From the NCBI GenBank assembly GCA_050944875.1, contig JBMNRW010000004.1, positions 1,304 through 65,303 on the forward strand: a DNA stretch of 64,000 nucleotides, read 5' to 3'. This stretch comes from Patescibacteria group bacterium (lineage in GTDB: Bacteria; Patescibacteriota; UBA1384; JACPKC01). Shown piece by piece: positions 4,443-28,216 of this stretch (position 1 is the first letter of the stretch; every line of letters starts with the position of its first letter). A program made the translations under genes and the position numbers. The notes under the pieces are model-generated. The model searched no databases. It saw nothing but the letters and a program-made list of their open reading frames with translations, and was not told where the DNA came from.

Positions 4443-4461
4443 TCGGTATAGTACACTCCTA

Positions 4462-6441: not shown

Positions 6442-6595
6442 CAGCCAACTAGTAGGCTTTCGTGTTTGGGTTCTGTTCGGTTCTGCCGTATACTAGTCTG
6501 GCGACAACTGCTGAACAGGTATCGCCACTACAGTGCAATGATATAGCGTAAGTACTTACTCGCCCCGTCTGCACCAGGGCACTTGGACTCAAGTC

Positions 6596-9429
<2,834 letters not shown>

Positions 9430-9430
<1 letters not shown>

Positions 9431-10671
9431 TGGCACGCGGCGCCGTCACGCCCCAAACCCGCAACCGTCTTCCGCGCGAGCCCGGCGTCTACTACTACCA
9501 GGACAGCACCGGGACGACGCTCTACGTCGGCAAGGCGACCAGTCTCCGTGACCGCGTCGGCTCATACTGGTCGCGCCCCTTAGACGCGCGCCTCACGGAG
9601 ATGCTCCCGAAGATCGCGCGCATCCGCTACCAGACGACCGACACCGCGCTCGAGGCCCTCATCCTCGAGGCAAACGAGATCCAGCGCCTGAACCCGCCGG
9701 TCAATATCCGCGGCAAGGACAACAAAACGTTCGCGCAGATCGCGCTCACGAGAGAGGACTTCCCACGACTCCTCATCGCCCGGCCGACGCAGAAGCTCGA
9801 CGTGCCCATCGACCGGACGTTTGGCCCGTACGTCTCCGCAATCGCTGCCCGCCAGGCGCTGAAGACGCTGGGCTCGATCTTCAAGTTCAACTGCAAGGGC
9901 AAGCCACTCTCTGGTCGGCCGTGCTTCTACTACCACTTGGGCTCTTGCCCCGGCGTCTGTGTCGGGAAGATCACGCCCGAGGAGTACCGCAAGCAGATCC
10001 GGAAAGTCGTCCAGTTCCTCGAAGGGAAGAAAGCGCGCGTCATCGCGACGACTCGTCGGCAGATGGAGGAGGCGGCGCGCGCCGAGCGGTTCGAGCAGGC
10101 CGCGCGACTGCGCAACGAGCTCTTCGCACTCACCCACATTCGCGACACCGCCTTCATGACCGACGACTCGACCGAGTTTCTCTCGCAGGCCTTCCCGCCA
10201 AGGCTCGAGGCCTACGACATCTCAAATATTGGCGCGACCGCCGCAGTGGCGAGTATGGTCGTCCTCGAGTACGGCCGGCCCAACCCCAACGAGTACAAGC
10301 AGTTTCGCATCCGTTCAACGCCCGGCCAGAACGACGTCGCAATGATCCGTGAGGTCGTGACGCGTCGCCTCAACCACCCCGAGTGGGGCACGCCCGACCT
10401 CATCCTCATCGACGGCGGCTTGGCGCAGGTAAATGCCGCGCGGGTCGCCGCCAAACGCGCCGGCCAACCTAACCTGCCGATCGCTGGCGTCGTCAAAGGC
10501 CCCCAGCGCAAGCTCGCCCGCCTAGTCTTAACGGACGCGGCACGTGACTGGCTGAATAACCACCGACTCACAACACAGCTCTTTGAGCCGGTCGCCCGCC
10601 TCGCCCGCGACGAAGCCCACCGCTTCGCCATTAAGTACCACCGAAAGGTGCGAAACAAACGACTATACTAA
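9430..10671 (+). CDS. uvrC: Excinuclease ABC subunit C, short form (GIY-YIG plus endonuclease domain; the C-terminal HhH2 domain is absent)
   Basis: GVYYYQDSTGTTLYVGKATSLRDRVGSYW GIY-YIG motif; ...DEAHRFAIKYHRK near the C-terminus; 413 aa versus about 600 typical; ATG overlaps the uvrA stop (TAATG). Confidence 0.88.
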
Positions 10672-10678: not shown

Positions 10679-12226
10679 CTACATCGCGGCCGGGTGGTAC
10701 TTAAGATCCTGCCGGGCGACGTGCTTCTCCGTCACGCGAAACCCGAGGTACTTCCCAAAGAGGAGTCGGGTCTGGGCGTCGACCGCCGGCAAGGACGAGA
10801 AGAGCAGGCATGAGATCGGTAAGAGGATCGGGGCGGTAATCCACTCGAGCGCGACGCTCGACGCCGAGGCGACCTGGCGATTCTTCGGTCGCGGCGGCAG
10901 GAGGAGCATCGAGATCATCTGTGTTACCGCCATACCGACGAGTGCGGTGGTGAGGATATTCCCGTAGAGCGGCGGGAAGGTGTACGCAATGACGGCGTTA
11001 CTGTACTGCCCACGCGCCAGCAAGGTCGGAAGCCAGCTGTACACCGCGAGAATGATCGAGGTCGTCCCCCACGAGAAGTGCCCTTCGACGAGCCGCCAGG
11101 CCTGGTACCACTTATCGAGCATCGGGAGGTGTGGGTTCTTCCACGTGTGGTAGAGCACGTACGGGATGTCCGAGCAGCCCCACGCCCACCGGCGCTTCTG
11201 CAGGTACTGCTCGCGGAACGTCGCCACGTACCCCTTCGGCGAAAGCACGGCGTCCTGGTAGACGGGTACGTTCAAGGGGATAACGTCGTGGCGGCCGTTG
11301 AACTTGAAGTAGCTGCGCCAGTACTGGTGGCCGTCCTCGACGATCGTCTTCGTCGACCAGTACTTCGTTGCGACGACTGCCTCGAAGCTCTGGGCGTGGG
11401 CAGAGAAGTTCCGCAGTCGGTACGGCCGGGTCGACTCGATCATCTGCCAGAACGAGCTCCCAAGCGCGATCGACCGGATCGGCATCGGAACCTCCCAGAT
11501 ATTATTAAAGAACATCGGGATCGGCTGGAACGAGGCGTGCACCGGGTCCGGGTGCTTGAGGTACGCGTACGCGAGCGCCGCGAAGTACTTCGCGTGGACG
11601 CGGTTGTCAGCGTCGAGCGTCGTCGTTACCACTCGGTCGTACGGGATATTCCGCCGGTCCAAAAGGCGCCGCGCGTGCTTCGCCGCCCAGCTAATGTTCG
11701 CGCCCTTCCCGATCACCTCACCCGGAATATCAGCCGGGTGCACAGTCGTAAGGAGCGCCGCAAAAGTCTTGCCATAGGACGCCTTCGCCGCCTTTGCGAC
11801 CGCTGCCCCGTTCTCGGCAAAGCGACCCTCAGTGGCTAAGACGACGATGATCCGGTCCTTCCGGTACCCCGCGCTCGCGATCGACTCGAGCGTCGACGCG
11901 ACGATGAGCGGATCCTCTTTCGAGACCGCCACGACGACCATGTGGTAGAGCGCGTCGACTGCGTCAGCCGGGAACCGGGTGTCGAGCTCCTTGAGCCAGT
12001 CCCGTCTGACGTCGCGGCGGTAGCGCAGGAACCCAACAACCAAGCGCGCACTCATCATGAGCGCGCGGGAGAGCCAGAGGACGGCGTAGACGATGAGCAG
12101 GTTCGCCGCGACCGTTGGCGCGAAAATCGTCAGTACCAGGAGTCCAATGAACGTTCCCCAGGTCAACAAGCCAGGCACAAGCTCAAGCCAAACCGGGTAC
12201 GGCGTGTCGTGGAGCCCGCCCCGCAT
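10679..12226 (-). CDS. Membrane-embedded family-2 glycosyltransferase (processive, cellulose/chitin-synthase-like)
   Basis: TLDADN (D,D), QYLQKRRWAWG (QxxRW), multiple TM helices on both sides; start set at MRGGLHD, overlapping the stop of the upstream small ORF (TAATG). Confidence 0.8.
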   Translation of the reverse strand: MRGGLHDTPYPVWLELVPGLLTWGTFIGLLVLTIFAPTVAANLLIVYAVLWLSRALMMSARLVVGFLRYRRDVRRDWLKELDTRFPADAVDALYHMVVVAVSKEDPLIVASTLESIASAGYRKDRIIVVLATEGRFAENGAAVAKAAKASYGKTFAALLTTVHPADIPGEVIGKGANISWAAKHARRLLDRRNIPYDRVVTTTLDADNRVHAKYFAALAYAYLKHPDPVHASFQPIPMFFNNIWEVPMPIRSIALGSSFWQMIESTRPYRLRNFSAHAQSFEAVVATKYWSTKTIVEDGHQYWRSYFKFNGRHDVIPLNVPVYQDAVLSPKGYVATFREQYLQKRRWAWGCSDIPYVLYHTWKNPHLPMLDKWYQAWRLVEGHFSWGTTSIILAVYSWLPTLLARGQYSNAVIAYTFPPLYGNILTTALVGMAVTQMISMLLLPPRPKNRQVASASSVALEWITAPILLPISCLLFSSLPAVDAQTRLLFGKYLGFRVTEKHVARQDLKYHPAAM

Positions 12227-12513
12227 TAGGACATGCTCCCATACACCATCGCGAACAGGATGAGAAACCCAACTTGCACGATCACGGCTGCCCCTCCTAA
12301 CACGTATCCTACGATAGGCTCTCGGCGAGCATACGTCCAGGTGATGAACGCGTTCGAAACCAAAAAGACGCTCGCGGCAAGCGGCGCCACTAGATCGTAC
12401 GTGACAAGCGACCGTAGCCACCAGACGAGGAGGTTACCGAGAACGGCAACTGCGAAGAGGAAGGTAGTGCTCCGGTCGACCCCGGCTGGCGGGGTGGGTG
12501 GGGTCGTGGTCAT
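12226..12513 (-). CDS. Small 2-TM membrane protein translationally coupled to the GT2 gene
   Basis: 95 aa, Pro/Thr-rich N-terminus then two hydrophobic helices; stop overlaps the GT2 start codon. Confidence 0.45.
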   Translation of the reverse strand: MTTTPPTPPAGVDRSTTFLFAVAVLGNLLVWWLRSLVTYDLVAPLAASVFLVSNAFITWTYARREPIVGYVLGGAAVIVQVGFLILFAMVYGSMS

Positions 12514-12529: not shown

Positions 12530-12604
12530 TGGAGCCGGTGGGCGGATTTGAACCGCCGACCTTTGCTTTACGAAAGCACTGCTCTACCACTGAGCTACAC
12601 CGGC
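12530..12604 (-). tRNA. tRNA-Thr (anticodon CGT), CCA encoded
   Basis: Manual fold of the reverse complement: acceptor gccggtg/caccggc, D-arm gctcagtggtagagc, anticodon loop ttcgtaa (one G-A mismatch at 27-43), T-arm ggcgg-ttcaaat-ccgcc. Confidence 0.75.
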
Positions 12605-12743
12605 GAGTGAACCAACGAGCGAATACTACTGGAATTCGCGAGAATGTGAACGAGCCTCGTAGCTACGAACGTAGCTACACCGGCACTTTTCCCTGTTACC
12701 TCGGTGGGCAGTGTAGCACGGCGACACACAGATTTCCAGCCTT

Positions 12744-13175
12744 TCACTGCAAGCCGAGATCCACCGGATCACCTACGGCAATACCGTGCTCGCGGACGAA
12801 GCCTGACCGGACTTCGAGTACGGCGTCGACAGCCGACGGAGCAGGGTACTGCTGCGCGCCATCATCAGTCGGCATTTCCCCTTCATACCCGACCACGGTG
12901 CCACCCTGAATCCAAATAAGATCGATCGGGAAGGTCACACCTTTCATCCAGAACGTCGGCCTGGTGGGCGAATCGTATGGGAAGAGCATCCCGTCTGAAG
13001 GCCCGAGCGGCGAGTGTCCCGCAAGGCCACGAACTTGCTCCTCCTCGGAGCGCGCGACCTCCGCCTGCACCGTGACGCGCTCGAACCGAACAGAAACCGT
13101 ACGCTTCGACGCACCGATCTGCCAGAGCACCATACTGATGATTCCAATCAGGAGAACGCCGCCCAGCCAGCGCAC
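12744..13175 (-). CDS. DUF192 (COG1430) family protein with N-terminal membrane anchor
   Basis: MLFPYDSPTRPTFWMKGVTFPIDLIWI matches the DUF192 core; N-terminal hydrophobic helix. Confidence 0.6.
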   Translation of the reverse strand: MRWLGGVLLIGIISMVLWQIGASKRTVSVRFERVTVQAEVARSEEEQVRGLAGHSPLGPSDGMLFPYDSPTRPTFWMKGVTFPIDLIWIQGGTVVGYEGEMPTDDGAQQYPAPSAVDAVLEVRSGFVREHGIAVGDPVDLGLQ

Positions 13176-14476
13176 TACGCTACCTGAAGCAGGCGCTTCG
13201 TCTCTACCTTGTACTTCTCGACTGCAGGCTGGTCGAATGGGTTCACGCCCAAGAGATGGCCGAGGTACATCATCTCGAGCATCTTGAGCTGCAAGAATGC
13301 GCCAATGCTCTCCTCATTCATAGCATCGAGCTCCAGCACCATGAACGGTCGCTCTGCCTTCTCGTACGCGATCATCGTCCCATCAAGAATAGCGTCCATA
13401 ATGGTTGCCATTGGCTTCCCGGCGATATCACCGACAAGCGCCCCAACCTCCGGCCGATTCGGGACCGTGAGCGCCGGCAGCGCCCGGACCCGAACAAACG
13501 TCGTCACCCGGTCGTTCGGCCCATCGAGGTAGAGCTGCACGACCGAGTGGAGGTCGGTCGACCCCATCGAGACGGTCGGCGTCATACCGGCGTGGACCAC
13601 CTCGCCCGCTCGGTTGTGCTCCTTCCCAATCGACTCACCCATGAGCTGACGATACCACTTCCCGACACTCTCAAGGTCCGACGCGAAGAGGAATGTATCG
13701 TGGATCGGTATGCCCGCCTGATTATGCGCGTAGAGCACTACCGCGCTCATCGCCGCCGGGTTCTCATCGAGCGAGGTTGCAAGGCACGCGTCGCGCATCG
13801 CCTTGGCACCCTTCACGAGTGCGCGGACGTCAATACCCGCGACGGCAAGGGGGAAGAGGCCAACCGCCGAGAACACGGAGTACCGCCCGCCGACCGTTTC
13901 GGGCATCCGAAGACACGGGATTCCCTGCTCCTGCCCGTACTGCCAGAGCTTCGAACCCTCGACCGTCGTTAAGACGACCGAATCCTTGGCGCTTCCGCCT
14001 GCCTGCTCCACGGCGTCGAGGAGCGCGAAGAAGTTCGCGGTCGTCTCGATCGTCCCACCCGACTTCGAGATTCCGTTCAAGAGCACGCGCTTCCCGTCCT
14101 TAGCGAACGTCTGCACCTGCTCAATAAGTCGCCCCATTGACAGCGCGTCTACCGTGTCAGCGTAGAACACCTGCGTGCCCGCGGCTTTACCCCCCAGTCG
14201 CCCCTGGATCGCCTCCTGCACTGCCATCGTCCCAAGGTTGGATCCCCCAATACCAATAACGACGAGCGCATCGACGTCCTGGTACCGTTCGGCAAGTGAT
14301 AACACCTCATCGAGGAGTGCCGAATCGTCGACGAGGTTCACGCTCGCCCGATCGTCCGCGTAGCCGCCAGCCTGCACGAGCTCCCGCATTCGAGTAATCT
14401 CGGGCGCTAGCTGCCCTGAAATCTCCGATAGTACGTCAGCTGCCACTCGACCCATCTGGCTCTCGAACCGCACCAT
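13175..14476 (-). CDS. pgi: Glucose-6-phosphate isomerase (short bacterial form)
   Basis: 433 aa; VVIGIGGSNLGTMAV, SKSGGTIETTANF, GGRYSVFSAVGLFP are the PGI signatures. Confidence 0.9.
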   Translation of the reverse strand: MVRFESQMGRVAADVLSEISGQLAPEITRMRELVQAGGYADDRASVNLVDDSALLDEVLSLAERYQDVDALVVIGIGGSNLGTMAVQEAIQGRLGGKAAGTQVFYADTVDALSMGRLIEQVQTFAKDGKRVLLNGISKSGGTIETTANFFALLDAVEQAGGSAKDSVVLTTVEGSKLWQYGQEQGIPCLRMPETVGGRYSVFSAVGLFPLAVAGIDVRALVKGAKAMRDACLATSLDENPAAMSAVVLYAHNQAGIPIHDTFLFASDLESVGKWYRQLMGESIGKEHNRAGEVVHAGMTPTVSMGSTDLHSVVQLYLDGPNDRVTTFVRVRALPALTVPNRPEVGALVGDIAGKPMATIMDAILDGTMIAYEKAERPFMVLELDAMNEESIGAFLQLKMLEMMYLGHLLGVNPFDQPAVEKYKVETKRLLQVA

Positions 14477-14571
14477 TGGACGCTCCTCTTCTTACCGATA
14501 TCCCCGCTATTCTCCGCATTTCCGGAATATCGCGCAACAGGTTCAAATCGTCTATTTATGGTATTAAACAC

Positions 14572-14600
14572 TTGACAAATGCGAAAGTATCTGGTAGAGT
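14572..14600 (+). promoter_or_regulatory. Near-consensus promoter TTGACA-N17-TAGAGT (P2), divergent from pgi, paralogous to P1
   Basis: ttgaca at 14572-14577, tagagt at 14595-14600; AT-rich upstream; downstream leader shares about 70% identity with the P1 leader. Confidence 0.55.
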
Positions 14601-15500
14601 ATCGCGTTGACAACAAGAAATGATGCCAGGTGCGAGCTGCGGCGATCGGTGTTCCCCTCCTCACCGTTCGCCACAAGTCTCACCTGAACGGGTGGGAAGT
14701 ACCAACCGAAACATCACGACGGCCTGTAGAGTAGAGTGTCCAGAAGCGCTCCGAACTGCGGAAACAGCCTCCTGCGCCATACCTATGTATGTAGGTGCGA
14801 CGCGGGGAGAACTGGGTCCACAGCGCTTCTACAGGCCTTTTGTATACGACAAGAAGCGCACCCAGCGAACGTTTCAAACGCGATGTGGCCACGGCAGCAG
14901 GAATTCCCCTGCCCGTCCAAACCCCGAGCACGGGGCGAAGACGTACCAGAGTGTGGCAACTGACGGTGGCTTGAAGGCCGACCCTGGGTCCCATCCGGGG
15001 CGCGATACCATGAACCGTCGGGTATAGCTGAACTGACATGAGCAAGCCGGTGCTACGGCGTTCGAGCTCATGTCCATTCACGCTGCACAGTCCGTTGCCG
15101 AGCCGGGGCCTTGTGCCTTACTCGGCGGCGGGTCGCATGCGGTGTCGAGATCCCCAAACATTTCGAGAAGGGTTCCAGCGCCACGACACCGTCTGCGATC
15201 CGCTCCACGCGGAAACCCGCTGAATTCCAGCGGTGTGGTCTACTCCGGAGGGGTAGCGCGACGCTTACAACATGCGTCAGCCTACGTTCCTTTCCCGAGC
15301 GTAGGCCACGCCGCTGCCAATGCAGCACATCACGATGACGCCGGTGGCAACGCCGTCTCCGCTCGGATAGAGCCGTCATCCCCCTCTGTAGCGTCGGGGA
15401 AGCTTGCCTGTAGTGGCAGCGCCGGGTCCACGCCCGCAACAGACGCACACAAATCAGTTGGCTTCTCGTGGAAAGAAGCTGACGAAGAAGGGAGGCGTCT
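14601..15500 (+). ncRNA. Candidate long non-coding transcript or decayed gene downstream of P2 (about 900 nt GC-rich, no credible ORF on either strand)
   Basis: Only overlapping junk-like ORFs on both strands (Arg/Ser/Pro-rich), typical of non-coding high-GC DNA; 5' region paralogous to the P1 transcript. Confidence 0.3.
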
Positions 15501-15503
15501 ACC

Positions 15504-15677
15504 ATGAGCGACCTCCTGAAATGGATATTGGCCGTGGGCGCGATCGGCCTCTTTTGTTGGGGTTACGTAGATGGGCTCGACCGTGATGAGCACGTCTACG
15601 TTGCGCCGGACCCGGCAGTCCGGCAGCAGAATATCGAAGCGCAGGGGGGGTTTCACTCCCAACGATACTGGGAGTGA
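15504..15677 (+). CDS. Small membrane protein (57 aa, MSDLLKWILAVGAIGLFCWGYVDGLDRDEHVYVAPDPAVRQQNIEAQGGFHSQRYWE), below the ORF-track cutoff
   Basis: Strong SD GAAGGGAGG 8 nt upstream of ATG; one TM helix; the 3' end overlaps a perfect 15-bp hairpin. Confidence 0.4.
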   Translation: MSDLLKWILAVGAIGLFCWGYVDGLDRDEHVYVAPDPAVRQQNIEAQGGFHSQRYWE

Positions 15678-15683
15678 AACCCC
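15647..15683 (+). other. Perfect 15-bp stem-loop (ggggtttcactccca / acgatac / tgggagtgaaacccc)
   Basis: Read directly; no U-tract follows, so not a canonical intrinsic terminator. Confidence 0.6.
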
Positions 15684-15698
15684 TAGGAGTTGCAGATA

Positions 15699-15815
15699 CT
15701 CCGTAAAAAACGCTGCCGGTTGAAGCTCTCCGTAAAAGCTTCGATCCTACGGCATGGAGGTAAAAATGCCGAATACAAAATAGCCCTGGACCCGGGGCGC
15801 TATAAAATGGGCATC
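15699..15815 (+). repeat. Direct repeats ctccgtaaaa (15699 and 15728, 29-bp spacing) plus phased A-tracts (ggtaaaaatgcc, atacaaaatagcc, ctataaaatgggc), iteron-like
   Basis: Read directly; AT-rich pocket in GC-rich surroundings. Confidence 0.4.
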
Positions 15816-16093
15816 GACCGCCGGGGTTGTCGGCGCGGTGGCCAAACGGCCGCAAGAAGATCGACGGAGCAACGGAGGGTCCGCCGGTAGTCAAGTGCAC
15901 AAGTACTTAGACTGCCCGCCGACCTGTCAATCCGTCGACGCCGCGTCACACCCGGCCTAAAAATCGATCCCGAAGTGGAATTCCTGTCGCTGACCGTGAG
16001 CATCACGCAGCATCAAATACAGGCTTCCGCTTCGGGATCTCCCCTTGCTCTTTGAGTTAACCTCAAAGGTTGAGGAGGAGAGCGAACCTTCTT

Positions 16094-16156
16094 ATGAATT
16101 ACCGCGCAGCACTCGTTGACTCGAGTTTTGCCGGTAATTTAGTAACAAGGAGGTGA
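16094..16156 (+). CDS. Micro-ORF 20 aa (MNYRAALVDSSFAGNLVTRR) with strong SD; its stop overlaps the SD of the next micro-ORF
   Basis: GAGGAGGAG 11 nt upstream of ATG. Confidence 0.2.
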   Translation: MNYRAALVDSSFAGNLVTRR

Positions 16157-16160
16157 AAAA

Positions 16161-16244
16161 ATGAGTAAAGAAGAAAAGCTCCTTCGGGAGCTTCAGACCA
16201 GGATTACCAAAAACGGCAGCCTACAGGTCCGCCTGCTGGGCTAA
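16161..16244 (+). CDS. Micro-ORF 27 aa (MSKEEKLLRELQTRITKNGSLQVRLLG) with consensus SD AAGGAGGTG
   Basis: AAGGAGGTGaaaaaATG; followed by a two-level hairpin (gcccgac...gtcgggc). Confidence 0.3.
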   Translation: MSKEEKLLRELQTRITKNGSLQVRLLG

Positions 16245-16403
16245 CCGTCCTCGCCCGACCTCTGCGCCACAAGCGCACGTCGGGCACTCCCTTCGCTTTT
16301 CGACGAGTCGAAAGACGAAATGGAGAGCGACACCTTCATCTTCCCGGTAGGACCTGAGTCGTTGAGTGATCAGCGCCTCAGGCCCTACATGGGAGGAAGG
16401 GAG

Positions 16404-16972
16404 GTGATAATCATCAGCAGCCTGAAGCTGCTCGGAGCGGTGCTCCTCACTCTGGTCGTCCTCGTGGCGGCTGGGTGTGGCGATCCCAACACCACCTTCA
16501 CGACCCCTGCGGGTGTGTTGGTGATGGAGAGCTACCGGCGGGCCGAGATCACCATCTCGACCGCACGGTGGAGCGCCGACTCCAGCGTGCAGATGGAGCT
16601 GCACAACTGGATGGTCATCCTGCACCCGCTCCAGGCGGACAAGGAAGGCTCGCGGTCTACGAGGCCGTGGTCACGCTCGGCCTGGAGCTGTGCCCCCACC
16701 TGCGCTTCACCTTAGAGGCGCCAGAGTGGGTACAGTTCTTGCCCTTACCGGTCGAGGTGGTCCGCTACCTCGACCACGACGCCATGGCCGAGGCGCTCAA
16801 CGAGCTCCTGGACTCGGAGTACTCGTTCGAGTGCATTTCGCCCGCGTGCGAGAGCATCGACCGCTGGGTCGATGCGAACGACGACGACACGCTCGTCGCC
16901 GTCCTCAAGCGGGCGAAGCAGATCGCTCGCGACTGCGAGGTGCTCGAGCACCTCGACGACCTCTTGAAGTAG
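16404..16972 (+). pseudogene. Lipoprotein gene with an apparent -1 frameshift near 16645-16655 (GTG start, signal IIISSLKLLGAVLLTLVVLVAAG-C); frame 3 then frame 2
   Basis: Frame-3 ORF 16320..16715 carries the lipobox signal and a credible N-terminal half; frame-2 ORF 16475..16972 carries a credible C-terminal half (...AVYEAVVTLGLELCPHLRF...DDLLK); a one-base insertion at ggc|tcg would fuse them; SD GGGAGGAAGGGAG before the GTG. Confidence 0.45.
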
Positions 16973-17052
16973 AGGTCGATTCCGCCTGGTCGCACGGCTC
17001 CCATCACGGTTGAGCCGCCCAGGCCACCCGGATCCTAAACAGATCCGGGCCT

Positions 17053-17092
17053 CTCTTCTCCGCTGGGATTTCCCAAATCAAGCGGAGAAGAG
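17053..17092 (+). promoter_or_regulatory. 11-bp hairpin (ctcttctccgc / gcggagaagag) whose 3' arm runs into the SD of the 17106 ORF
   Basis: Read directly; SD GGAGG at 17092-17096, ATG at 17106. Confidence 0.4.
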
Positions 17093-17105
17093 GAGGTGAA
17101 TCAAA

Positions 17106-17387
17106 ATGAAGGTGGAAGTCGACCGTGAGGTCCTTATCACCGGCCCCTTTGCGAACCGGTTCCTAGTTCGCAAGGAGAAAGATGACTTCGGCCGTGAGAA
17201 AGGCCGCGACCTGTCCGGCGCCGACCTGGTCGGCAAGATGGGCAAGGTCGTCGGCCTCAACTCGGCGAGCGCTACCATTGCGCTCGCCAAGGCCCTGAAG
17301 GGCGAGGAGTACGCGCCGTTCGCCTACGTAAAGGTGGATGGCGAGAAACTCGCCCTTCGTTTCTCGGAGTTCAGCGTGGTCCGCTAG
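17106..17387 (+). CDS. Hypothetical protein, 93 aa
   Basis: Strong SD GAGGAGGTG; MKVEVDREVLITGPFANRFLVRKEKDDFGREKGRDLSGADLVGKMGKVVGL...; no recognisable domain. Confidence 0.45.
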   Translation: MKVEVDREVLITGPFANRFLVRKEKDDFGREKGRDLSGADLVGKMGKVVGLNSASATIALAKALKGEEYAPFAYVKVDGEKLALRFSEFSVVR

Positions 17388-17490
17388 GAACAGGCTTAAC
17401 TTCCCATCACCCCGAGCAGCACTGCTGTTCGGGGCTTCCTCGCTGGGTTTGATCATATCGATCAAAATCTAACCCGGCGATGGAGGCAGT

Positions 17491-17721
17491 ATGAAGCTGT
17501 TCCGTCAAACGCTGGGGATCGCGCTGGAATACGCGCATCCCGGCAACGTCGCCCCCCCCCGCGAGATCGTGGGCCTGTTGGCCCTCGCGTCCGAGTTGGA
17601 CCGTGGAGCCTTATCCGAGGCGGCCCAACAGGGACTGGAGCATCTGGCACTCGTCCTCATGCAGGACGAGCAGTTCCAGCGGTTCCACCGCCACCACGTC
17701 GAGCGGATGCGGACGCCGTAG
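17491..17721 (+). CDS. Hypothetical protein, 76 aa
   Basis: SD GGAGG before ATG; palindromes (tttgatcatatcgatcaaa, ccccgagcagcactgctgttcgggg) in its upstream region. Confidence 0.4.
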   Translation: MKLFRQTLGIALEYAHPGNVAPPREIVGLLALASELDRGALSEAAQQGLEHLALVLMQDEQFQRFHRHHVERMRTP

Positions 17722-17957
17722 TCCGGTATCCGCTCGATCAACACCAACCGCCCCGGTTCGCGCCGGGGCACTCTCTCTGGCACTGATACATATCAGTGCT
17801 GAAGCTGAGTGTTAGATGAAGAACGCAACGTACACACTGGCCCGCTTCGGGTTGGGATGTGACGGCTAGTAGATTGATCGCATCAGCCGATTCGAGCAAT
17901 CCGCTTATCTGCCGTAGATCCCCTTCTGGACCCGGAGCGGACCAGTGCGTACAACCA

Positions 17958-17990
17958 AAGAGCCCTGCCAATTCGGCAGGGCTCTTTTTG
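17958..17990. terminator. Rho-independent terminator (12-bp stem aagagccctgcc / ggcagggctctt, T4)
   Basis: Hairpin plus ttttgtatt; sits between convergent small genes. Confidence 0.7.
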
Positions 17991-18004
17991 TATTGCCAAT
18001 GTTC

Positions 18005-18232
18005 CTATGCACGCGTCGCGAGATGCTCTTCGATCCGCGTCACCCGCTCATCGAGGCGCATAACGTCCTTGGCGATCGCGTGGACGTCTTCGGTCTCCAT
18101 TTCAATGAGACGGTCGATCTTCGCTTCGAGTGGCTGCAACCTATCCCTCACCATTGCCGAGGTATACGACCGTTCCTCTAGGAACAACTCTTTCAGTTGA
18201 TGAAGTTGCGTGGTCGTGAAGCCATCGTTCAT
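18005..18232 (-). CDS. Hypothetical coiled-coil protein, 75 aa
   Basis: MNDGFTTTQLHQLKELFLEERSYTSAMVRDRLQPLEAKIDRLIEMETEDVHAIAKDVMRLDERVTRIEEHLATRA; heptad-like pattern. Confidence 0.4.
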   Translation of the reverse strand: MNDGFTTTQLHQLKELFLEERSYTSAMVRDRLQPLEAKIDRLIEMETEDVHAIAKDVMRLDERVTRIEEHLATRA

Positions 18233-18303
18233 ACCTGCATCCTACCACAAACAACCGCCGCCCAACCTCGAAAGGCTGAGCGGCGGTTGGAGCAGTTTTC
18301 AAT

Positions 18304-18320
18304 TGGAGCGGGTAGCGAGA
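18304..18320 (-). other. tRNA-Gly-like 3' fragment (…ctcgctacccgctcca: acceptor 3' strand, discriminator and CCA) without the rest of a tRNA
   Basis: Complementary to the acceptor 5' strand of the fragment at 18467-18503 but separated from it by the complete tRNA-Gly. Confidence 0.35.
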
Positions 18321-18369
18321 ATACTTCGTGTCCCACGCCTTCGGCGCGTGATCGAACTCGTGCGGATCT

Positions 18370-18443
18370 TGGAGCGGGATACGAGAATCGAACTCGCGTC
18401 TCTTGCTTGGGAAGCAAGCGTACTGCCATTGTACTAATCCCGC
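18370..18443 (-). tRNA. tRNA-Gly (anticodon CCC), CCA encoded
   Basis: Manual fold: acceptor gcgggat/atcccgc, D-arm gtac-aatggca-gtac, anticodon arm cttgc-ttcccaa-gcaag, T-arm gcgag-ttcgatt-ctcgt; closely parallels E. coli tRNA-Gly architecture. Confidence 0.8.
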
Positions 18444-18466
18444 TCCCAGCTCCGCATTATTCATTA

Positions 18467-18503
18467 CTGGGAAGGTCGCGTTCTACCACTAAACTATACC
18501 CGC
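18467..18503 (-). other. tRNA-Gly-like 5' half (gcgggta-ta-gttt-agtggta-gaac-g-cgacc-ttcccag) lacking a 3' half
   Basis: Acceptor 5' strand, D-arm, anticodon 5' stem and loop with CCC, then unrelated AT-rich sequence. Confidence 0.4.
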
Positions 18504-18537
18504 AACGGGCATATTCTCGCACGAGCTCAGGGAGAAA

Positions 18538-19704
18538 TCAACGCTTCTGTTGATGGTCGGTGATCAATTCGGCGAGGTGCGCGAACGAGAGGTCTTCGTA
18601 GTGCGGGGTAACCAGGCTCGCGAGCGCGAGTTCGTCTGTCGTATGAACCCCAACGTCCAATGCGACCGGCACCATCCCCGCTTCCTTCGCCGCCAGGAGC
18701 CCACCGGGTGAGTCTTCGAACACAATGCACCGCTCTGGCGGCACGCCGAGCCGACGCGCTGCCTCTAAGAACATATCTGGTGCCGGCTTTGGAAGCTGAA
18801 CGTCCTCAATACCGACGAGTGCCGACATTCGCTCACGGATTCGCAGCCGGTCGAGCACCTGACGCGCCCGAAGAACGGGTGAGTTCGTACCAACCGCATT
18901 GCCCACACCTTGTCCTTCGAGTGACGCGAGGAATGCTGGAATCGCTTGGTACGGCAGAACACCAACGCGATCATGTACCTCTGATTCAATTTCGTTCACT
19001 AGCTCAGCAAAACGGTCGTGGTCAATACTTATCCCGATACCCTGAGAGACTAGTTCACAAAACCCGCGTAACGAGCGACCGACGTAGGCGGAGAGCAACG
19101 CCTCCGGCGGCCGAATGCCACTGAGGCGGTACGTCGCCTCTTCAAACACTGGCAGCAGGTGGAGCTTCGATGGGAAGAGCGTATCGTCCATATTCCAGAT
19201 CACAGCAAACGGCGCGTGCTTGAGCGCTTCGCGTCGCTCGAGGATGTGGCGGAACTCCGGCTGGAGGTGCGTCGCCGGATCAAGGAGCTCTTCGGGGTGT
19301 TTCCAGGCGATCTCCGATACCTCGCGCGGGTTGAGTTCGAAGTCGAAAACGGGGTTGCGAACCGTCGCCGTATAGCACTGGATCCAGCTGGCCCGCGCGT
19401 CCGGCGCACCCGGGTAGTGGAGCTCAAGGCCGCGCTGCACATCGCCCGGCGGACGGACGCCGATTTCCTCCTCTGTCTCGCGAACGAGCGTCGTTTGGTC
19501 GCTCTCACCCTCGTACTGGTGGCCGCCAGCACTCACCGTCCACGAGCCGTTGTGCCGCTCGCCAGCGCGCCGCTGGCAGAGCAGTTCACCGCGCTCGTTC
19601 TCGATCATGAGCGCAACGATACGGGGGAGCGGTGCTCGCTCCCCCTCCCGCCGTTCTGGTGTGCGTTGCGCCTCGAACCCCCGCGGCGCCGGCTCGAACT
19701 CCAT
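18538..19704 (-). CDS. Bifunctional-looking fusion: N-terminal NUDIX hydrolase, C-terminal HAD-superfamily hydrolase
   Basis: Nudix box GGHQYEGESDQTTLVRETEEEIGV; HAD motif I AVIWNMDDTLF and C-terminal IVFEDSPGGLLAAKEAG (motif IV-like). Confidence 0.7.
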   Translation of the reverse strand: MEFEPAPRGFEAQRTPERREGERAPLPRIVALMIENERGELLCQRRAGERHNGSWTVSAGGHQYEGESDQTTLVRETEEEIGVRPPGDVQRGLELHYPGAPDARASWIQCYTATVRNPVFDFELNPREVSEIAWKHPEELLDPATHLQPEFRHILERREALKHAPFAVIWNMDDTLFPSKLHLLPVFEEATYRLSGIRPPEALLSAYVGRSLRGFCELVSQGIGISIDHDRFAELVNEIESEVHDRVGVLPYQAIPAFLASLEGQGVGNAVGTNSPVLRARQVLDRLRIRERMSALVGIEDVQLPKPAPDMFLEAARRLGVPPERCIVFEDSPGGLLAAKEAGMVPVALDVGVHTTDELALASLVTPHYEDLSFAHLAELITDHQQKR

Positions 19705-19709
19705 ACGGA

Positions 19710-20126
19710 CTACGCGCGGTGGCGCATCTTCCGCCGCTCCGCCAGGCGGAGGCGGGCAATCGCGCGTTCAACCGCGGCGAGCGCTTCTGCCGTGTCGTGC
19801 TCGGTCGCCGCCGCCTCGCGCGCCCGAGTGGCACGGTCGAGCGCTTCCTGTGCCCTGCGCTCATCAACTTCCTCCTCGAGCTCAGCTGCGTCCGTCAGGA
19901 GCTTGACCTCGTTATTCGCGACCTCAACGAACCCGCCGTGGACCGCCATGTGGCGCCGCTCTGCTCCATGATGGAGTGCGACTTCACCGGACTGCAGGAG
20001 CGTCATGAGTGGCAGATGGTTCGGGAGCACCGTGAGCTCGCCGGTCACGCTCGGCAAGGTGAGGCCATCTGCCTCGCCTTCAAACACGATCCGCTCCGGC
20101 GTAATGATCCGCACGAGGAGTGGCAT
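19710..20126 (-). CDS. atpC: F0F1 ATP synthase subunit epsilon
   Basis: 138 aa; ITPERIVFEGEADGLTLPSVTGELTVLPNHLPLMTLL. Confidence 0.85.
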   Translation of the reverse strand: MPLLVRIITPERIVFEGEADGLTLPSVTGELTVLPNHLPLMTLLQSGEVALHHGAERRHMAVHGGFVEVANNEVKLLTDAAELEEEVDERRAQEALDRATRAREAAATEHDTAEALAAVERAIARLRLAERRKMRHRA

Positions 20127-22392
<2,266 letters not shown>

Positions 22393-22398: not shown

Positions 22399-23937
22399 CT
22401 ACTTCGCCTGCTCGTCAATCCAGGCCGTCGCCTTGAAGTCGTCGATGACGCGCTTCAGGTCGTCCTCGATCGCGTCGAGCTTCGGGTTCCCTGCGAACTG
22501 CTCGCGGACTGCGTCGAACTTCAACCGGAAGTGCTCGAGTAGCCGGTCAGAAAACTCCGTCACCCGCTCGACCGCGATATCATCGAGGTAACCGTTGTTC
22601 ACCGCGTAGAACGAGAGCACCTGGTCGGCAACCGCCATCGGGGAGAACTGCGCCTGCTTCAGGAGCTCGGTGACACGCTTGCCGCGCTCGAGCTGCTTGC
22701 GGGTCGCCTCGTCGAGGTCGCTCCCGAACTGCGCGAAGCTCTCGAGCTCGCGGTACTGCGCGAGGTCGAGGCGCACCTGGCCGGCCACCTTCTTCATCGC
22801 CTTCGTCTGTGCCGAGCCGCCGACGCGCGAGACCGAAAGACCGACGTTCAGCGCCGGGCGGATGCCGCGGTAGAACAGGTCGGACTCAAGGAAGATCTGT
22901 CCGTCCGTGATTGAGATGACGTTCGTCGGAATGTAGGCTGACACGTCGCCAGCTTGCGTCTCGATGATCGGGAGTGCGGTCAATGAGCCGCCGCCATGGT
23001 CGGCGTTCAGGCGCGCTGCCCGTTCGAGTAGGCGCGAGTGGAGGTAGAAGACGTCACCCGGGTACGCCTCGCGTCCCGGCGGGCGTCGCAGGAGAAGCGA
23101 CATCTCGCGGTACGCCCATGCGTGCTTAGAGAGATCGTCGTACACGATGAGCGCGTCGCGCCCGTTGTCGCGGAAGAACTCACCCATCGCAGCGCCGGCG
23201 TACGGCGCGAGGTACTGCATCGGCGCCGGGTCAGAGGCGCCAGCGGCGACGATGATTGTGTGCTCCATCGCGCCGTTGTCCTCGAGGACCTGCTTAAGGC
23301 GCGCGATCTTCGACTCTTTCTGGCCGATCGCGACGTAGATACAGATGACGCCGGTCCCCTTCTGATTCAGGATGGTGTCAATCGCGACCGCCGTCTTCCC
23401 GGTACCACGGTCACCGATGATGAGCTCGCGCTGGCCGCGGCCGACCGGGATGAGGCCGTCGATTGCCTTCAAGCCAGTCTGGAGCGGCGTGTCGACAGAC
23501 TGCCGGGTAATGACACCCGGGGCGATCTTCTCGACGAGGCCAGTCTTCGAGGTACCGAGCGGCCCCTTGTCGTCGATCGGGAGACCGAGTGGGTTCACGA
23601 CGCGGCCAACGAGCTCCTCGCCAACCGGCACTTCAAGGACAGCGCCAGTTCCCTTGACCGTGTCGCCTTCGGCAACCTCGGTATAGTCGCCGAGGATAAC
23701 GGCGCCGATCGTCGTCTCCTCGAGGTTCAGGGCAAGCGCAGCAACCGTGTCGCCGCCCTGGGTCTGGATTTCGAGCTTCTCCATCGACTGGACGTCGTCG
23801 AGGCCGGCGACCCGGGCAATGCCGTCACCGACTTCGAGGACTGTCCCGGTCCGAGCGCTCGCACTCGCGGGGGCGTACCCCTCGATGCGACGTCGGAGCG
23901 TCTCGACAATCGTCGTCGCGTCTTTCTCTGTGGCCAT
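22399..23937 (-). CDS. atpA: F0F1 ATP synthase subunit alpha
   Basis: [15 protein letters not shown] Walker A; 512 aa. Confidence 0.95.
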
Positions 23938-23951
23938 GTGTCTCCTTCTCC

Positions 23952-24437
23952 CTACGCTGTCGTGAGCGCTTGGCGGAGCGCTTGGGCGCGCGCCGCGAGC
24001 GAGTGGTCGACGGTTACGCCGCCAATAGTGATTCTCATCCCTCCGCCGATCCGCGCATCCTCACGGAACTCGGCGACCGCACGCTCGCCGAACGGGGCGA
24101 AGACAGCCTGCCGCTCAGCAACGCTGAGCGGCAGCGCAGTAACGACGCGGACCGCCGTCCCTACTCCGTCGTGCGCAGCTGCCGTGAGTGCGAGCGACGC
24201 GATCTCAGGGAGCTTCGCGAGGACGCGATCTTCCGCAAGAACGCCAAGGAAGCGAGCAATGGACACCGGCAGCGCGAACGCACTGACGAGGGTGTCTGCC
24301 CCGCCAGATGCGGCAACTCGACGCAGCGTCCGGGCAGCGCGCTTGTCCTCGAAGGCCATGAGCCAGCCGAGCTGTTCCGTCACCAGCATTTCAGCGGTCG
24401 TGGCGAGGTACGCCTTCGCGTACGCCGAAAGGTTCAT
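23952..24437 (-). CDS. atpH: F0F1 ATP synthase subunit delta (OSCP)
   Basis: 161 aa, position between the b and alpha subunits; helical OSCP-like. Confidence 0.75.
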
Positions 24438-25045
24438 ACGAGCGTCTCCTTCGCGCGCTCGACCGCACTGCGAACCGAGGCTGCATCGTAGCGTGCTGAT
24501 TCGCCCGCGAGCTTCTCCGCTGCAACAGCGACGAGCTCGCCGACGCGTGTCTCAACGTCCGTCAACAGCGCGGTCCGCTCCGCGTCGAGCTGCGCGCGCG
24601 TCCGCTCAAGGAGTGCTGCCGCTTCAGCGCTCGTCGTCGCCTTTACCTCGGCGGCGAGCTTATCCGCAGACTGTCGCGCCTGAGTAACGATCTCCTGCGC
24701 CTCTGCGCGAGCGCTACGAAGGAGTTCGGTAGTCTTCGCCTCGGCGTCTTTCGCCGCCCGCTCGCTCGCCTCTGCAGCGGCGACGCCTCGCTCAATCTTC
24801 TCGCGCCTGCCGTTGAGCATCGCGAGCATCGGGCGGTAGAGCGCCCACCTGAGGAGCGCGAAGAGAATGAGGAAGTTTACCGCCTGTACGAGGAGGAAGG
24901 CCGGGTCGACGCCGAGCACCGCCAAGCCGGACGGCTGGGCCGTTTCTTCCTGGACGACAGTTTCCTCGGTTAGCCCTTGGCGGACTGCCGGCTCACTTGT
25001 GCGCGCCGGTGTTGCCGCCAGTACTTCGATTCGAGCGAGTTGCAC
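24434..25045 (-). CDS. atpF: F0F1 ATP synthase subunit b
   Basis: Single TM helix then long Ala/Glu/Arg-rich helix; operon position. Confidence 0.75.
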   Translation of the reverse strand: MQLARIEVLAATPARTSEPAVRQGLTEETVVQEETAQPSGLAVLGVDPAFLLVQAVNFLILFALLRWALYRPMLAMLNGRREKIERGVAAAEASERAAKDAEAKTTELLRSARAEAQEIVTQARQSADKLAAEVKATTSAEAAALLERTRAQLDAERTALLTDVETRVGELVAVAAEKLAGESARYDAASVRSAVERAKETLV

Positions 25046-27012: not shown

Positions 27013-27041
27013 CTGACAAATACCCCATTCTATGATACTAT
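27013..27041 (+). promoter_or_regulatory. Promoter cTGACA-N17-TACTAT (P3) for the 27250 gene
   Basis: ctgaca at 27013-27018, tactat at 27036-27041. Confidence 0.5.
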
Positions 27042-27046
27042 TTGGC

Positions 27047-27249
27047 GTTTCGAAATTGAGGTAGTTTTTACCCATTTCGAAACCCTTTACAAAACAGAGT
27101 CAGTTCCACCTTGAGCATCGTTCAGCGATATTTTGTGGTGGAACTGACGTCAAGGCAAATGCTCTTTGGAGCTTGTGCTCCACCCCTCAGTTCCTCCAAT
27201 CGCCCATGACACTCAGTGTTATGGAGCTTAGGAAGGGGGGCATCGTTCT
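27047..27249 (+). promoter_or_regulatory. About 200-nt structured 5' leader (tttcgaaa repeats; 12-bp stem gtcagttccacc...ggtggaactgac at 27099-27148; small hairpin ggagcttgtgctcc)
   Basis: Read directly; candidate riboregulator. Confidence 0.4.
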
Positions 27250-28212
27250 ATGACGACGATGACCCAAGTAGCCAAACAAGCCGCGCGCCGCATCTGGTGC
27301 GCAATCTCCCGTGGGGTTAACCACCCCCAGGACTGCGCCCCGAGCGAGTGGCTCGTGGGTAAGATCGCCCAAGAGCGAAAGCCCAGCCGGGTCGCGGACG
27401 CGATCTGGCGGCTGTGGCAGCAGGTGGAGCGCACCTGCATGCTGCCGGGCTTCAGCCGACCGCTGGGGAGCTGCTACCACCCGAGAGTGGAACACCTCCT
27501 CGACATCGCCTACCACTACGGCGGGCAGGCCGGCGAGGCCTTCGGCCGCCTCAATCGGGCGGCGGCGATCCTGGCCACCACCCTCCGGGGTAAGTGGTCA
27601 TGGGTCGACGAGCGGGGCCGTTGCCAGCAGGAAGACAGGACGACGGGCATCGCGCTCGCGCCTGACCTCTGCTGGCAGTTGGCCGAGGCGATCCGGGCAG
27701 AAGCTGGGCCGGCCGTCGAGGCCATCGGTCCAGAATTCTTCCGACCCGGCTGGAACGAATATGTGGCGGCGGTGACGGCATTCCACGCCGAAACCGAGGC
27801 CAAGTTCGCCCCGCTCCTCGGCGCGGTTGCCGGGTTCGACAGGGAGCTCCTCGATCCGACCCGTCTCGCGCTCTGCGAGCGGATCGAAGAGGAGCCCGCC
27901 TGGGTCGGCGGAGCAGAGCGGACTGCCAGCAATGGTACCCGCTTCTACGAGCTCCTGACGGACGGGGAGACTCGGACTGTCAAGGAGGCTCCGACCGCGA
28001 GCCACCAGTTCGGGGAATATCACCCCGAGACTGGACCGGCCGAGGTGGTCGTCGCCGGCGGCACCTATATGGTGCAGCTGGTCGACGTTTGTTATCCCCG
28101 AGGTTGGCGCTGGGAGGTCGGCCAGGTCCTGGTCACCCCCAACGCCGATCCGGAGAAGCTGGCCAAGGCCCTGAAGCGCCTGGACGGCAGCTTCGGCCAC
28201 GGCTGGCACTAA
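27250..28212 (+). CDS. Hypothetical protein, 320 aa, Cys/Trp/His-rich, no recognisable domain
   Basis: Long ORF with genome-typical codon usage, own promoter and terminator. Confidence 0.55.
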   Translation: MTTMTQVAKQAARRIWCAISRGVNHPQDCAPSEWLVGKIAQERKPSRVADAIWRLWQQVERTCMLPGFSRPLGSCYHPRVEHLLDIAYHYGGQAGEAFGRLNRAAAILATTLRGKWSWVDERGRCQQEDRTTGIALAPDLCWQLAEAIRAEAGPAVEAIGPEFFRPGWNEYVAAVTAFHAETEAKFAPLLGAVAGFDRELLDPTRLALCERIEEEPAWVGGAERTASNGTRFYELLTDGETRTVKEAPTASHQFGEYHPETGPAEVVVAGGTYMVQLVDVCYPRGWRWEVGQVLVTPNADPEKLAKALKRLDGSFGHGWH

Positions 28213-28216
28213 GTAA

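Follow-up and report, generated by a model that had tools for sequence, protein, structure and literature searches.

Gene content and organisation of the region

The window analysed here, a 64-kb stretch (about 63% G+C) of contig JBMNRW010000004.1 from the metagenome-assembled genome of an uncultured Patescibacteria group bacterium, carries a region of about 3.7 kb between the glucose-6-phosphate isomerase gene pgi (13175-14476, minus strand) and a tRNA-Gly locus. The initial annotation of this DNA described the region as an accessory island of tiny open reading frames (ORFs) with unusually strong Shine-Dalgarno (SD) sites, and the block was indeed located between pgi on the left and tRNA-Gly with accompanying tRNA fragments on the right. 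The main anomaly of the region, missed at that stage, is the extreme predicted folding of the whole unit. A sigma-70-type promoter (TTGACA-17-(TG)GTAGAGT, with 10/12 matches and a TG extension) is found on the plus strand at 14572-14600, and the strong terminator noticed earlier was recovered as an intrinsic terminator with a 13-bp stem and a T-run at 17957-17987 on the same strand. Judged from these signals, the region would constitute one plus-strand unit running from the promoter to the terminator. A promoter-like site facing pgi (14613-14586, minus strand; TTGTCA-16-GATACT) overlaps the island promoter, and the control regions of the island unit and of pgi are divergent and interleaved.

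Two relatives of the region were available for comparison. The close one is a 1.3-kb contig from Logan run SRR23967303 (L083), which ends before pgi, and the distant one consists of two overlapping ENA contigs (L084 and L085). The window itself is 100% identical over 12560-20334 in the Logan assembly of run SRR31066179, so the junctions and the frame disruption described below occur in both assemblies and are not peculiar to one of them, although shared source reads are possible. The island ORFs correspond to locus tags ACOYBJ_02180-02205, each annotated as 'hypothetical protein'.

Genuine genes of this genome have a G+C content of about 0.65, 0.44 and 0.7-0.9 at the first, second and third codon positions (GC1, GC2 and GC3), respectively. 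By this profile small genes do exist in the island, but coding signal is entirely missing from about 1.6 kb of it (14607-15490 and 15684-16160), where the ORFs of 135 and 145 codons have flat profiles. All of the ORFs listed initially, from 15504 to 17491, lie on the plus strand; p57, p93 and p76 are coding, but the micro-ORF at 16094 is not credible as a gene. The first of them, p57 (15504-15677, plus strand), encodes 57 residues with an N-terminal transmembrane helix, is preceded by the SD GAAGGGAGG at 15487-15495 and has a coding-like codon-position G+C of 0.67/0.40/0.71; its stop codon is overlapped by a perfect 15-bp hairpin (15647-15683). It is followed by a folded, ORF-poor spacer (15684-16160, plus strand) with hairpins at 15820-15957 and 15966-16040 and, in the folding scan described below, window z scores of -3 to -8. 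The micro-ORF (16094-16156, plus strand, 19 codons), preceded by a leader hairpin carrying GAGGAGGAG, is devoid of coding-like codon-position G+C.

The next ORF, p27 (16161-16244, plus strand, 27 residues, SD AAGGAGGTGA), is possibly coding. It is in frame with the following lipoprotein-like gene, from which it is separated by a single TAA (16242-16244), and coding-like third-position G+C continues across the gap from p27 to 16404. The lipoprotein-like gene (16404-16972, plus strand) has a plausible signal peptide ending in LVAAGC but is not a simple ORF: near 16640-16665 the G+C signal at third positions shifts into the -1 frame, where it persists to 16972. Either one gene of about 190 codons has suffered a frameshift here, or two ORFs overlap (16404-16715 and 16667-16972); together with p27 the lipoprotein-like gene could form one gene of about 270 codons with two lesions, the TAA and the switch near 16650. 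Its sequence is identical in the independent Logan assembly.

Two cassettes on the plus strand complete the set of ORFs. The p93 cassette (17049-17387) consists of a leader hairpin (17049-17096) and an ORF of 93 residues (17106-17387), and the p76 cassette (17408-17747) of a G+C-rich hairpin, an SD-bearing leader hairpin and an ORF at 17491-17721 with a codon-position G+C of 0.75/0.38/0.86. They are followed by an ORF-less cassette leader (17748-17815, plus strand), homologous to the leader of a 77-aa membrane ORF (x77) of the close relative. Beyond the terminator, a convergent ORF on the minus strand (p75m, 18005-18232) encodes a coiled-coil orphan of 75 residues; it lies within the island as first delimited and outside the folded unit. 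Comparison with the close relative yielded a ratio of non-synonymous to synonymous divergence (dN/dS) of 0.21 at a dS of 0.39 for p93, and of 0.11 at a dS of 0.15 for p75m; both are therefore real genes, and p93 is under purifying selection. The products of p57 and of the lipoprotein-like gene are predicted to be membrane-bound or secreted, those of p93 and p76 to be soluble.

Excess RNA folding

Folding was scanned in 200-nt windows over the whole 64 kb against dinucleotide-preserving shuffles. Windows covering 14501-18301 gave z scores from -1.2 to -16.7 except for one at +0.5, most of them being below -3, whereas core genes lie at about 0±1 and control windows at -0.5±1.4. The ORF-free 5' segment (14607-15487, plus strand, about 880 nt), which shows no codon-position G+C periodicity, has a z score of -5.2, with 200-nt windows reaching -5.8; within it, a hairpin of 118 nt (14721-14838) is followed by TTTTGTAT and resembles the terminators of the units. 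Folding is stronger on the plus strand than on the minus strand (mean z difference -1.3; 22 of 33 windows), which points to RNA and not to the symmetry of duplex DNA.

The excess also extends into the coding sequences, as seen with a synonymous-codon shuffle in which both the protein and the codon usage are kept. The z scores obtained were -2.7 and -5.5 for the N- and C-terminal halves of the lipoprotein-like gene and -4.3 for p93, compared with 0.03±0.92 for core genes (24 segments). In the close relative, p93 scored -3.5 and x77 -4.6; in the distant one (L085), an ORF of 217 residues scored -3.9 and -4.9 and the p93 homologue of 86 residues (p86) -7.8, and window z scores on the contigs of the relatives ranged from -2 to -9. 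The neighbouring p75m is core-like (-0.7 and -0.3). Since unrelated ORFs are equally folded and the neighbour p75m is not, the folding belongs to the type of unit and not to a gene family.

Perfect hairpins with stems of at least 8 bp occur at 3.5/kb in the island against 0.24/kb elsewhere, a 15-fold difference. The palindromic sites that had been placed between the ORFs are thus present, but they are not confined to the gaps, 8 of the 12 hairpins being inside ORFs. Four other Patescibacteria loci (84 kb) contained no folded runs of several kilobases, only isolated structured windows. Hairpins with a CUUCGG tetraloop are not significantly enriched (4 on the plus strand against about 2 expected), and a pairing between the 5' and 3' ends of the full-length RNA was not trusted, as it came from a single minimum free energy (MFE) prediction of a 3.4-kb RNA.

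Leader hairpins and Shine-Dalgarno sites

The cassettes share a module in which a G+C-rich hairpin is followed by two tracts that pair with each other, the first CU-rich and the second GA-rich, with a short hairpin between them; the GA-rich tract contains the SD, and the start codon follows 6-12 nt further on. The short hairpin is often an AT-centred palindrome, and these palindromes are the 'operator-like' sites of the initial annotation, for example TTTGATCATATCGATCAAA at 17450 and GCACTGATACATATCAGTGC at 17780. In 8 of 12 leaders the SD is situated in the 3' arm of the leader hairpin. Cassette leaders are more stable than core leaders, with means of -32.7 against -23.1 kcal/mol and z scores of -3.6 against -0.5 (Mann-Whitney p = 3e-5), and the SD of the 16404 gene lies within a leader hairpin of -50 kcal/mol. 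The leader hairpin of p93 has a CU-rich 5' arm and a GA-rich 3' arm carrying GAGGAGGTG, and differs from that of the close relative by two compensatory pair changes (U-A to C-G and C-G to U-A). For the MFE structure of the window sequence, 20 of the 31 affected pairs are broken in the close relative against 28.6 expected (P = 0.013). The p93 homologue of the distant relative is preceded by a hairpin of the same design and unrelated sequence (CUCCUUUCUUUGGGGUAC ... GUACCCUAUAGGAAAGGAGG), and its 217-aa ORF has AGAGGAGGAAG behind a stable hairpin. This shared design indicates that the strong SDs are one arm of a conserved RNA element. The notion that the SDs are specifically occluded gained no statistical support, their accessibility and MFE pairing being no different from those of core genes, even though the leaders are much more stable.

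The strength of the SDs was expressed as the predicted duplex energy with the anti-SD in the region from -20 to -4; a canonical anti-SD was assumed, the 3' end of the 16S rRNA being outside the window. The SD strings reported earlier are all present at 15504, 16094, 16161, 16404, 17106 and 17491, with energies of -11.6 (p57), -9.3, -15.5, -10.2, -16.2 and -9.3 kcal/mol, respectively, so that a strong SD accompanies 6/6 island ORFs. The median for 45 core ORFs of at least 120 codons is -4.1 kcal/mol. It had been stated that core genes mostly lack an SD; this holds for the majority, including uvrA and uvrB, where the SD is missing, but energies of -8.6 kcal/mol or lower, matching the island, occur in 10/45 core ORFs (22%) when the start of the longest ORF is used and in 15/45 (33%) when the best start within the first 40 codons is taken. 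Among the core genes with a strong SD are pgi (AGAGGAGCG), the gene at 58151-58927 (AGGAGGTG) and the mreC and ftsE-like genes. Strong SDs on all four credible island genes have a probability of about 0.01 given p of about 0.33, and with the ORFs from the paralogous units and the relatives included, 9/9 have a strong SD. The contrast is an enrichment and a matter of degree, and no categorically different initiation regime is seen.

Paralogous units in the same window

The island is one of at least three related units in the 64 kb. The string TTGACA-N17-TAGAGT occurs in the window only once more, at 231-259 (0.04 expected by chance), where it opens unit A (231-935, plus strand). This unit comprises the promoter, a 5' end 68% identical to that of the island over 79 nt (E 8e-6), the ribosome-binding site (RBS) GGAAGGGAGG and a broken ORF of about 100 codons; it also has a leader module lacking an ORF, and its terminator ends in CTTTTTGTATT, like that of the island. 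The RBS is similar to those of p57 and the lipoprotein-like gene, and the RBS and N-terminus of p57 are paralogous to those of both the 16404 gene and unit A. Window z scores in unit A go down to -7.8. Its coding frame (about 440-730) is out of register with the SD and the ATG at 426, which opens an ORF of only four codons (ATG CAG CGC ACC TAG); the unit contains either a frameshifted gene or one with an unusual start.

Unit C (27014-28245, plus strand) is located 3' of tRNA-Asp and its terminator. It has a promoter and 5' end related to those of the island, a folded leader of about 440 nt with window z scores of -2 to -5, a leader hairpin with AGGAAGGGGGG, and a terminator. Its ORF (27250-28212) encodes a soluble orphan of 320 residues with synonymous-shuffle z scores of -3.3 and -6.1, for which neither a Pfam match nor an IMG/VR relative was found. 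The island and units A and C are each within about 1 kb of tRNA genes. A metagenome scan with the shared promoter and 5' pattern returned one unrelated organism and was discarded as a chance sigma-70 match.

Homology of the products and turnover of cassettes

None of the island proteins has a match in Pfam, PHROGs, PADLOC or NCBIfam. Among about 15 billion proteins only two relatives of p93 were detected, making this a family of three members: the copy in the close relative, 84% identical, and p86 on L084/L085, 47% identical (E 3.5e-12). The p75m protein matches only its own cluster, and the remaining island products are singleton 90% clusters. A PDB profile search came back empty, and the AlphaFold2 models of p93 (predicted local distance difference test score, pLDDT, 40, from a 2-sequence alignment) and of the C-terminal half of the lipoprotein-like gene product (pLDDT 43) are unusable. 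The idea of a lineage-specific small-protein module has thus stood up, every product being an orphan or nearly so.

Its accessory character is likewise visible at the nucleotide level in the close relative, where p93 is about 86-88% identical and the stretch 17408-17747 (hairpin, leader and p76) has no counterpart. There, an unrelated membrane ORF of 77 residues with two helices, x77, takes the place of the missing p76 cassette; the ORF-less leader at 17748-17815 is 70% identical to the leader of x77 (100 nt aligned, E 2.5e-7), the ORF itself being absent from the window. From about 17830 to about 18322 the two sequences are about 98-99% identical. The comparison therefore shows replacement of a cassette inside the block, on a 1.3-kb contig that does not reach pgi. 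Both indel junctions fall at similar modules of the form 'CCCCG...CGGGG + C + CU-tract', and their positions suggest recombination between modules.

The distant relative (L085 1-1246 and L084 923-1345) has an unrelated orphan of 217 residues upstream of its p93 homologue, and the homologue is followed by a strongly folded stretch of at least 440 nt that is poor in ORFs and has several CUUCGG hairpins. TAGAGT-type -10 boxes were also noticed at L085 26-31 and 80-85. These features point to the same unit design in a lineage whose p93 homologue is 47% identical; between the window and L084, no similarity was detected in the non-coding stretches. No homologues of the island were present in 80 loci compared for synteny via pgi, a gene of the archaeal/candidate phyla radiation type whose best GTDB relative is 54% identical.

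The most strongly conserved part of the unit is its 3' end (17826-17992, plus strand), where a near-perfect rod hairpin of 124 nt (17830-17953) is directly followed by the terminator. The rod has a fold z score of -9.7 on the plus strand, and the window covering it one of -16.7. Over about 160 nt the element has 2 differences from the close relative, while flanking synonymous divergence is 0.15-0.39. It is preceded by TGTTAGATG (17810-17818), with TGATAGATG at the equivalent place in the close relative, and both resemble the extended -10 of the unit promoters (TGGTAGAGT, TGCTAGAGT). The rod element may be expressed on its own as a small RNA of about 167 nt; alternatively, it may stabilise the long transcript at its 3' end. 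It has no Rfam and no IMG/VR match, and a miniature inverted-repeat transposable element was ruled out by its single copy in the window. The 167-nt element is a concrete, testable candidate for a new small RNA.

The tRNA-Gly locus and the question of origin

The tRNA-Gly locus (18252-18503, minus strand) consists of a terminator hairpin (18252-18289) and an intact tRNA-Gly(CCC) at 18370-18443, accompanied on the minus strand by a 20-nt copy of the 3' end, from T-loop to CCA (18303-18322), and by the 5' half of a second tRNA-Gly(CCC) (18467-18503). A T-arm-like fragment, CGAGTTCGAT, is also seen at about 18349-18358, and the half-tRNA has an acceptor arm (GCGGGTA) that fits both the 3' fragment and the intact tRNA of the close relative. 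In the latter, 19 nt of this tRNA 3' end are perfectly repeated on either side of only 42 nt (1270-1341). These fragments look like traces left by repeated rounds of integration and excision at the T-loop, and the locus is an integration hotspot; the decay of ORFs and the flux of cassettes fit an accessory compartment. In the window, the tRNA-Gly 3' segment is found only at 18304-18322 and 18370-18388, 66 nt apart and enclosing about 47 nt. No tRNA-derived repeat was found at the pgi end and no att repeats around units A and C, duplicated tRNA segments being restricted to the tRNA-Gly locus.

A phage- or mobile-element-derived origin, as initially proposed, gained no support: the island proteins have no PHROG, PADLOC, Pfam or NCBIfam match, and DNA, protein and motif searches of phage, plasmid and IMG/VR collections returned nothing. 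Pfam scans covered the long ORFs and most small ORFs of the 64 kb, leaving out a few stretches such as the atpA region; among the ORFs scanned there was no integrase, transposase or reverse transcriptase, and no IntI-type recombinase. Replicase, maturation and coat genes were not found either, and the island ORFs with coding signal reach about 190 codons at most. Three R''/R' box pairs per strand were located in the 64 kb, none having at least 8/12 complementary inner positions as expected of attC sites; the only attC-like pair in the island (17467-17601) has 5/12. With Rfam 15 at gathering score only tRNAs were detected in the window; at E up to 10 nothing credible was obtained for 14300-18400, GOLLD, ROOL, OLE, 6S, SRP and group I/II introns included, and at E up to 1 units A and C gave nothing credible, only chance matches to microRNA-like hairpins. 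The G+C content of the island is 0.53-0.65 compared with about 0.60-0.67 in the flanks, with the lower values in non-coding parts. No evidence of a recent import of the region was found.

The import from a donor with different translation-initiation signals, proposed to account for the strong SDs, likewise found no support. The host itself puts strong SDs on 22-33% of its core ORFs, the island ORFs carry the host codon-position G+C pattern, and elsewhere the window contains two paralogous units built to the same design of promoter, leader and SD. Strong SDs can be an arm of a conserved RNA hairpin and should be used with caution as a marker of horizontal transfer.

Genomic setting

The housekeeping genes of the window include, besides pgi, uvrB, uvrA and uvrC (4081-10671), a NUDIX-HAD gene, the F-type ATP synthase operon, secA and mreBC. 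An ORF of 580 codons without a Pfam domain (10679-12421, minus strand) adjoins uvrC, and a plus-strand ORF of 549 codons (23038-24687), which lies opposite the atpA gene of the ATP synthase operon, is probably an artefact. At its start (2-139) the window encodes the C-terminus of a DUF4325 (STAS-like) protein. Between unit A and a tRNA-Arg lies an AT-richer patch (910-1760) that contains a minus-strand orphan of 71 residues, an XRE-type HTH gene (1157-1393) and a gene for a DUF5652 membrane protein (1529-1735). An AT-rich stretch 3' of unit C (28250-29900) carries a membrane ORF of 210 residues (28287-28919) and an ORF of 213 residues (29240-29881), both with a G+C content below that of core genes and without a Pfam match.

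Proposed explanation and alternatives

As a tentative explanation, which we consider quite possible, the island would be a host-adapted, lineage-specific and fast-turning-over transcription unit that produces a compact polycistronic RNA with hairpin-gated strong SDs. The near-consensus sigma-70 promoter (14572-14600) would direct a plus-strand RNA of up to 3.4 kb ending at 17957-17987, which would start with about 900 nt of untranslated folded sequence and continue as a string of cassettes. Each cassette would consist of a G+C-rich hairpin, a leader hairpin with a CU 5' arm and a GA 3' arm containing the SD, and a small ORF, the ORFs carried being p57, the lipoprotein-like gene, p93, p76 and possibly p27. 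Selection would act for tight folding over the full length of the RNA, synonymous positions included, and the folding may result in a long-lived, nuclease-resistant message. A cistron would be translated only once its leader hairpin has opened, the strong SD then capturing the 30S subunit; this need for a strong SD at an opened leader would explain the strong SDs on these genes. Cassettes would be gained, lost and degraded, plausibly via recombination between the similar hairpin and CU-tract modules, and the island would be one of the at least three paralogous units. The analysis shows the layout of the unit, its excess of predicted folding, purifying selection on p93, the exchange of cassettes and the existence of paralogues; co-transcription, the stabilising and gating roles of the folds and any role of the encoded proteins are inferred.

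Several observations weigh against this explanation. The assumption of co-transcription relies on a single promoter and a single strong terminator, and the hairpin with TTTTGTAT at 14721-14846 could end most transcripts early; no second consensus promoter for the downstream island genes was found, and such a possible early stop is the main internal weakness of a single-transcript model. The unpaired probability of the SDs (0.09-0.41) is not below that of core genes (0.32±0.12), and MFE pairing of the SD region does not differ from core (p = 0.14), which leaves the translation-gating step hypothetical. Covariation support is thin, and the relatives comprise one close and one distant lineage, each on contigs of less than 1.7 kb. 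The broken ORFs, namely the frame switch in the lipoprotein-like gene, the start frameshift of unit A and the in-frame TAA after p27, could mean that the units are decaying relics and not working operons. Finally, the GC3 of the island ORFs (0.82-0.93) is above that of most core genes and could reflect either selection for pairing or a different origin.

Such a different origin would be given if the island were what is left of one or more mobile elements (a defective prophage, a satellite or an integrative island) that entered at the tRNA-Gly hotspot and have since lost the integrase and most genes, the folding and the SDs being inherited from the element, perhaps with a single-stranded DNA (ssDNA) or RNA stage. 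RNA and ssDNA viruses are known for folding that pervades the whole genome, and the island lies on the 3' side of tRNA-Gly with its 20-nt duplicate and half-tRNA, where the close relative has its 19-nt repeat; all three folded units are close to tRNA genes, unit A has an XRE-type HTH gene and an AT-richer patch as neighbours, and the genes are orphans whose cassettes vary between relatives and some of which are broken. The tRNA repeats, however, enclose about 47 nt and not the island, with none at the pgi end or at units A and C; the ORFs scanned include no gene for an integrase, a transposase, replication or a structural component, and no PHROG, PADLOC, phage, plasmid or IMG/VR match speaks for an element. 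G+C content and codon-position pattern are host-like, and the promoter is common to two other loci and interleaved with the promoter region of pgi. A very old, heavily eroded mobile element is possible, and we regard a mobile remnant in general as rather unlikely. The units A, B (the island) and C together with the p93 contigs of the two other lineages could also represent a new class of DNA-encoded compact RNAs of kilobase scale, in which the RNA would be a functional particle (exported, packaged or a protected store in an episymbiont) or the units would be chromosomal copies of an element with a single-stranded stage; the small ORFs and hairpin-embedded SDs would then be adapted to reading from such an RNA. 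This we hold to be distinctly unlikely.

It is very unlikely that the island encodes one or more large structured non-coding RNAs in the manner of GOLLD and ROOL, the small ORFs being secondary or dual-function. About 1.6 kb is strongly folded without coding signal, folding runs through the ORFs at synonymous sites, the rod hairpin (17830-17953) is 99% conserved next to synonymous sites that have diverged by 15-39%, and the unit is near tRNAs, as for GOLLD and ROOL (PMC12286853); but p93 evolves as a protein, with a 47%-identical homologue kept in a distant lineage, four ORFs have a clear codon-position G+C periodicity, no Rfam family matches at E up to 10, and the non-coding parts share no detectable similarity with those of L084. 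Modules resembling type I toxins, with small membrane proteins silenced by SD-sequestering folds until processing, would account for the small hydrophobic products (p57, the lipoprotein-like product and x77) and for SDs in stable hairpins opposite CU-rich, anti-SD-like tracts. The primary transcript of dinQ is reported to be translationally inert until 5' processing (PMC5066626), a likeness that counts in favour. Nevertheless, this reading is extremely doubtful: the only minus-strand promoter-like site in the island region faces pgi (14613-14586) and no antisense promoter was found, the soluble products of p93, p76 and unit C are far larger than type I toxins, the unit is multi-cistronic with 3.4 kb against about 0.4 kb for type I units, and SD accessibility is indistinguishable from that of core genes.

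Comparison with known systems

The explanation of the island as a host-adapted unit with a compact RNA rests on computation from three lineages, and the resulting picture is more unusual than the one initially proposed. One design of promoter, leader and cassette is used for unrelated orphan genes in three units of the 64 kb and in two further lineages, and its recurrence suggests a specific, heritable way to package and control small-protein genes, in a phylum whose accessory genes are almost entirely uncharacterised.

The long and, by prediction, highly structured RNA close to tRNA genes is reminiscent of GOLLD and ROOL, which have been reported near tRNAs (PMC12286853); the island differs from these in giving no covariance-model match, in its embedded protein-coding cassettes and in the lack of a prophage context. 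With hok, tisB and dinQ it shares an upstream CU-rich segment that pairs with the SD and some small membrane products, but no antisense promoter was found in the island, the unit is polycistronic and of kilobase scale, and most products are not toxin-like. Islands targeting tRNA genes and prophage remnants resemble the locus in their position next to a tRNA 3' end with duplicated T-loop-to-CCA segments and in their variable orphan content; here, by contrast, the repeats enclose about 47 nt, no integrase occurs among the scanned ORFs, the G+C content is host-like and no viral or plasmid homologue was found in the collections searched. Integron cassette arrays, including clusters of attC sites lacking integron-integrases (CALIN), are likewise made up of unidirectional small orphan ORFs behind one upstream promoter with imperfect palindromes between them, and their cassette content varies between close relatives. 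The island is unlike them in having no attC boxes (RYYYAAC ... GTTRRRY) with paired inner arms and no IntI among the scanned ORFs, and its palindromes lie upstream of each ORF and carry the SD, the folding running through the ORFs too.

Kilobase-long excess folding of mRNA that includes synonymous positions is a hallmark of RNA viruses and RNA phages; to our knowledge, excess folding on this scale has not been described for chromosomal bacterial operons. Like the single-stranded RNA phages (Leviviricetes, such as MS2 and Qbeta) and other RNA viruses, the island would give a plus-sense RNA of about 3.4 kb that is folded below its shuffles, coding sequences included, with RBSs within hairpins and structured 5' and 3' ends. 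Unlike them, the unit is chromosomal, sits between housekeeping genes, has a sigma-70 promoter and an intrinsic terminator, and carries orphan ORFs of 27-190 codons in place of any of replicase, maturation or coat size.

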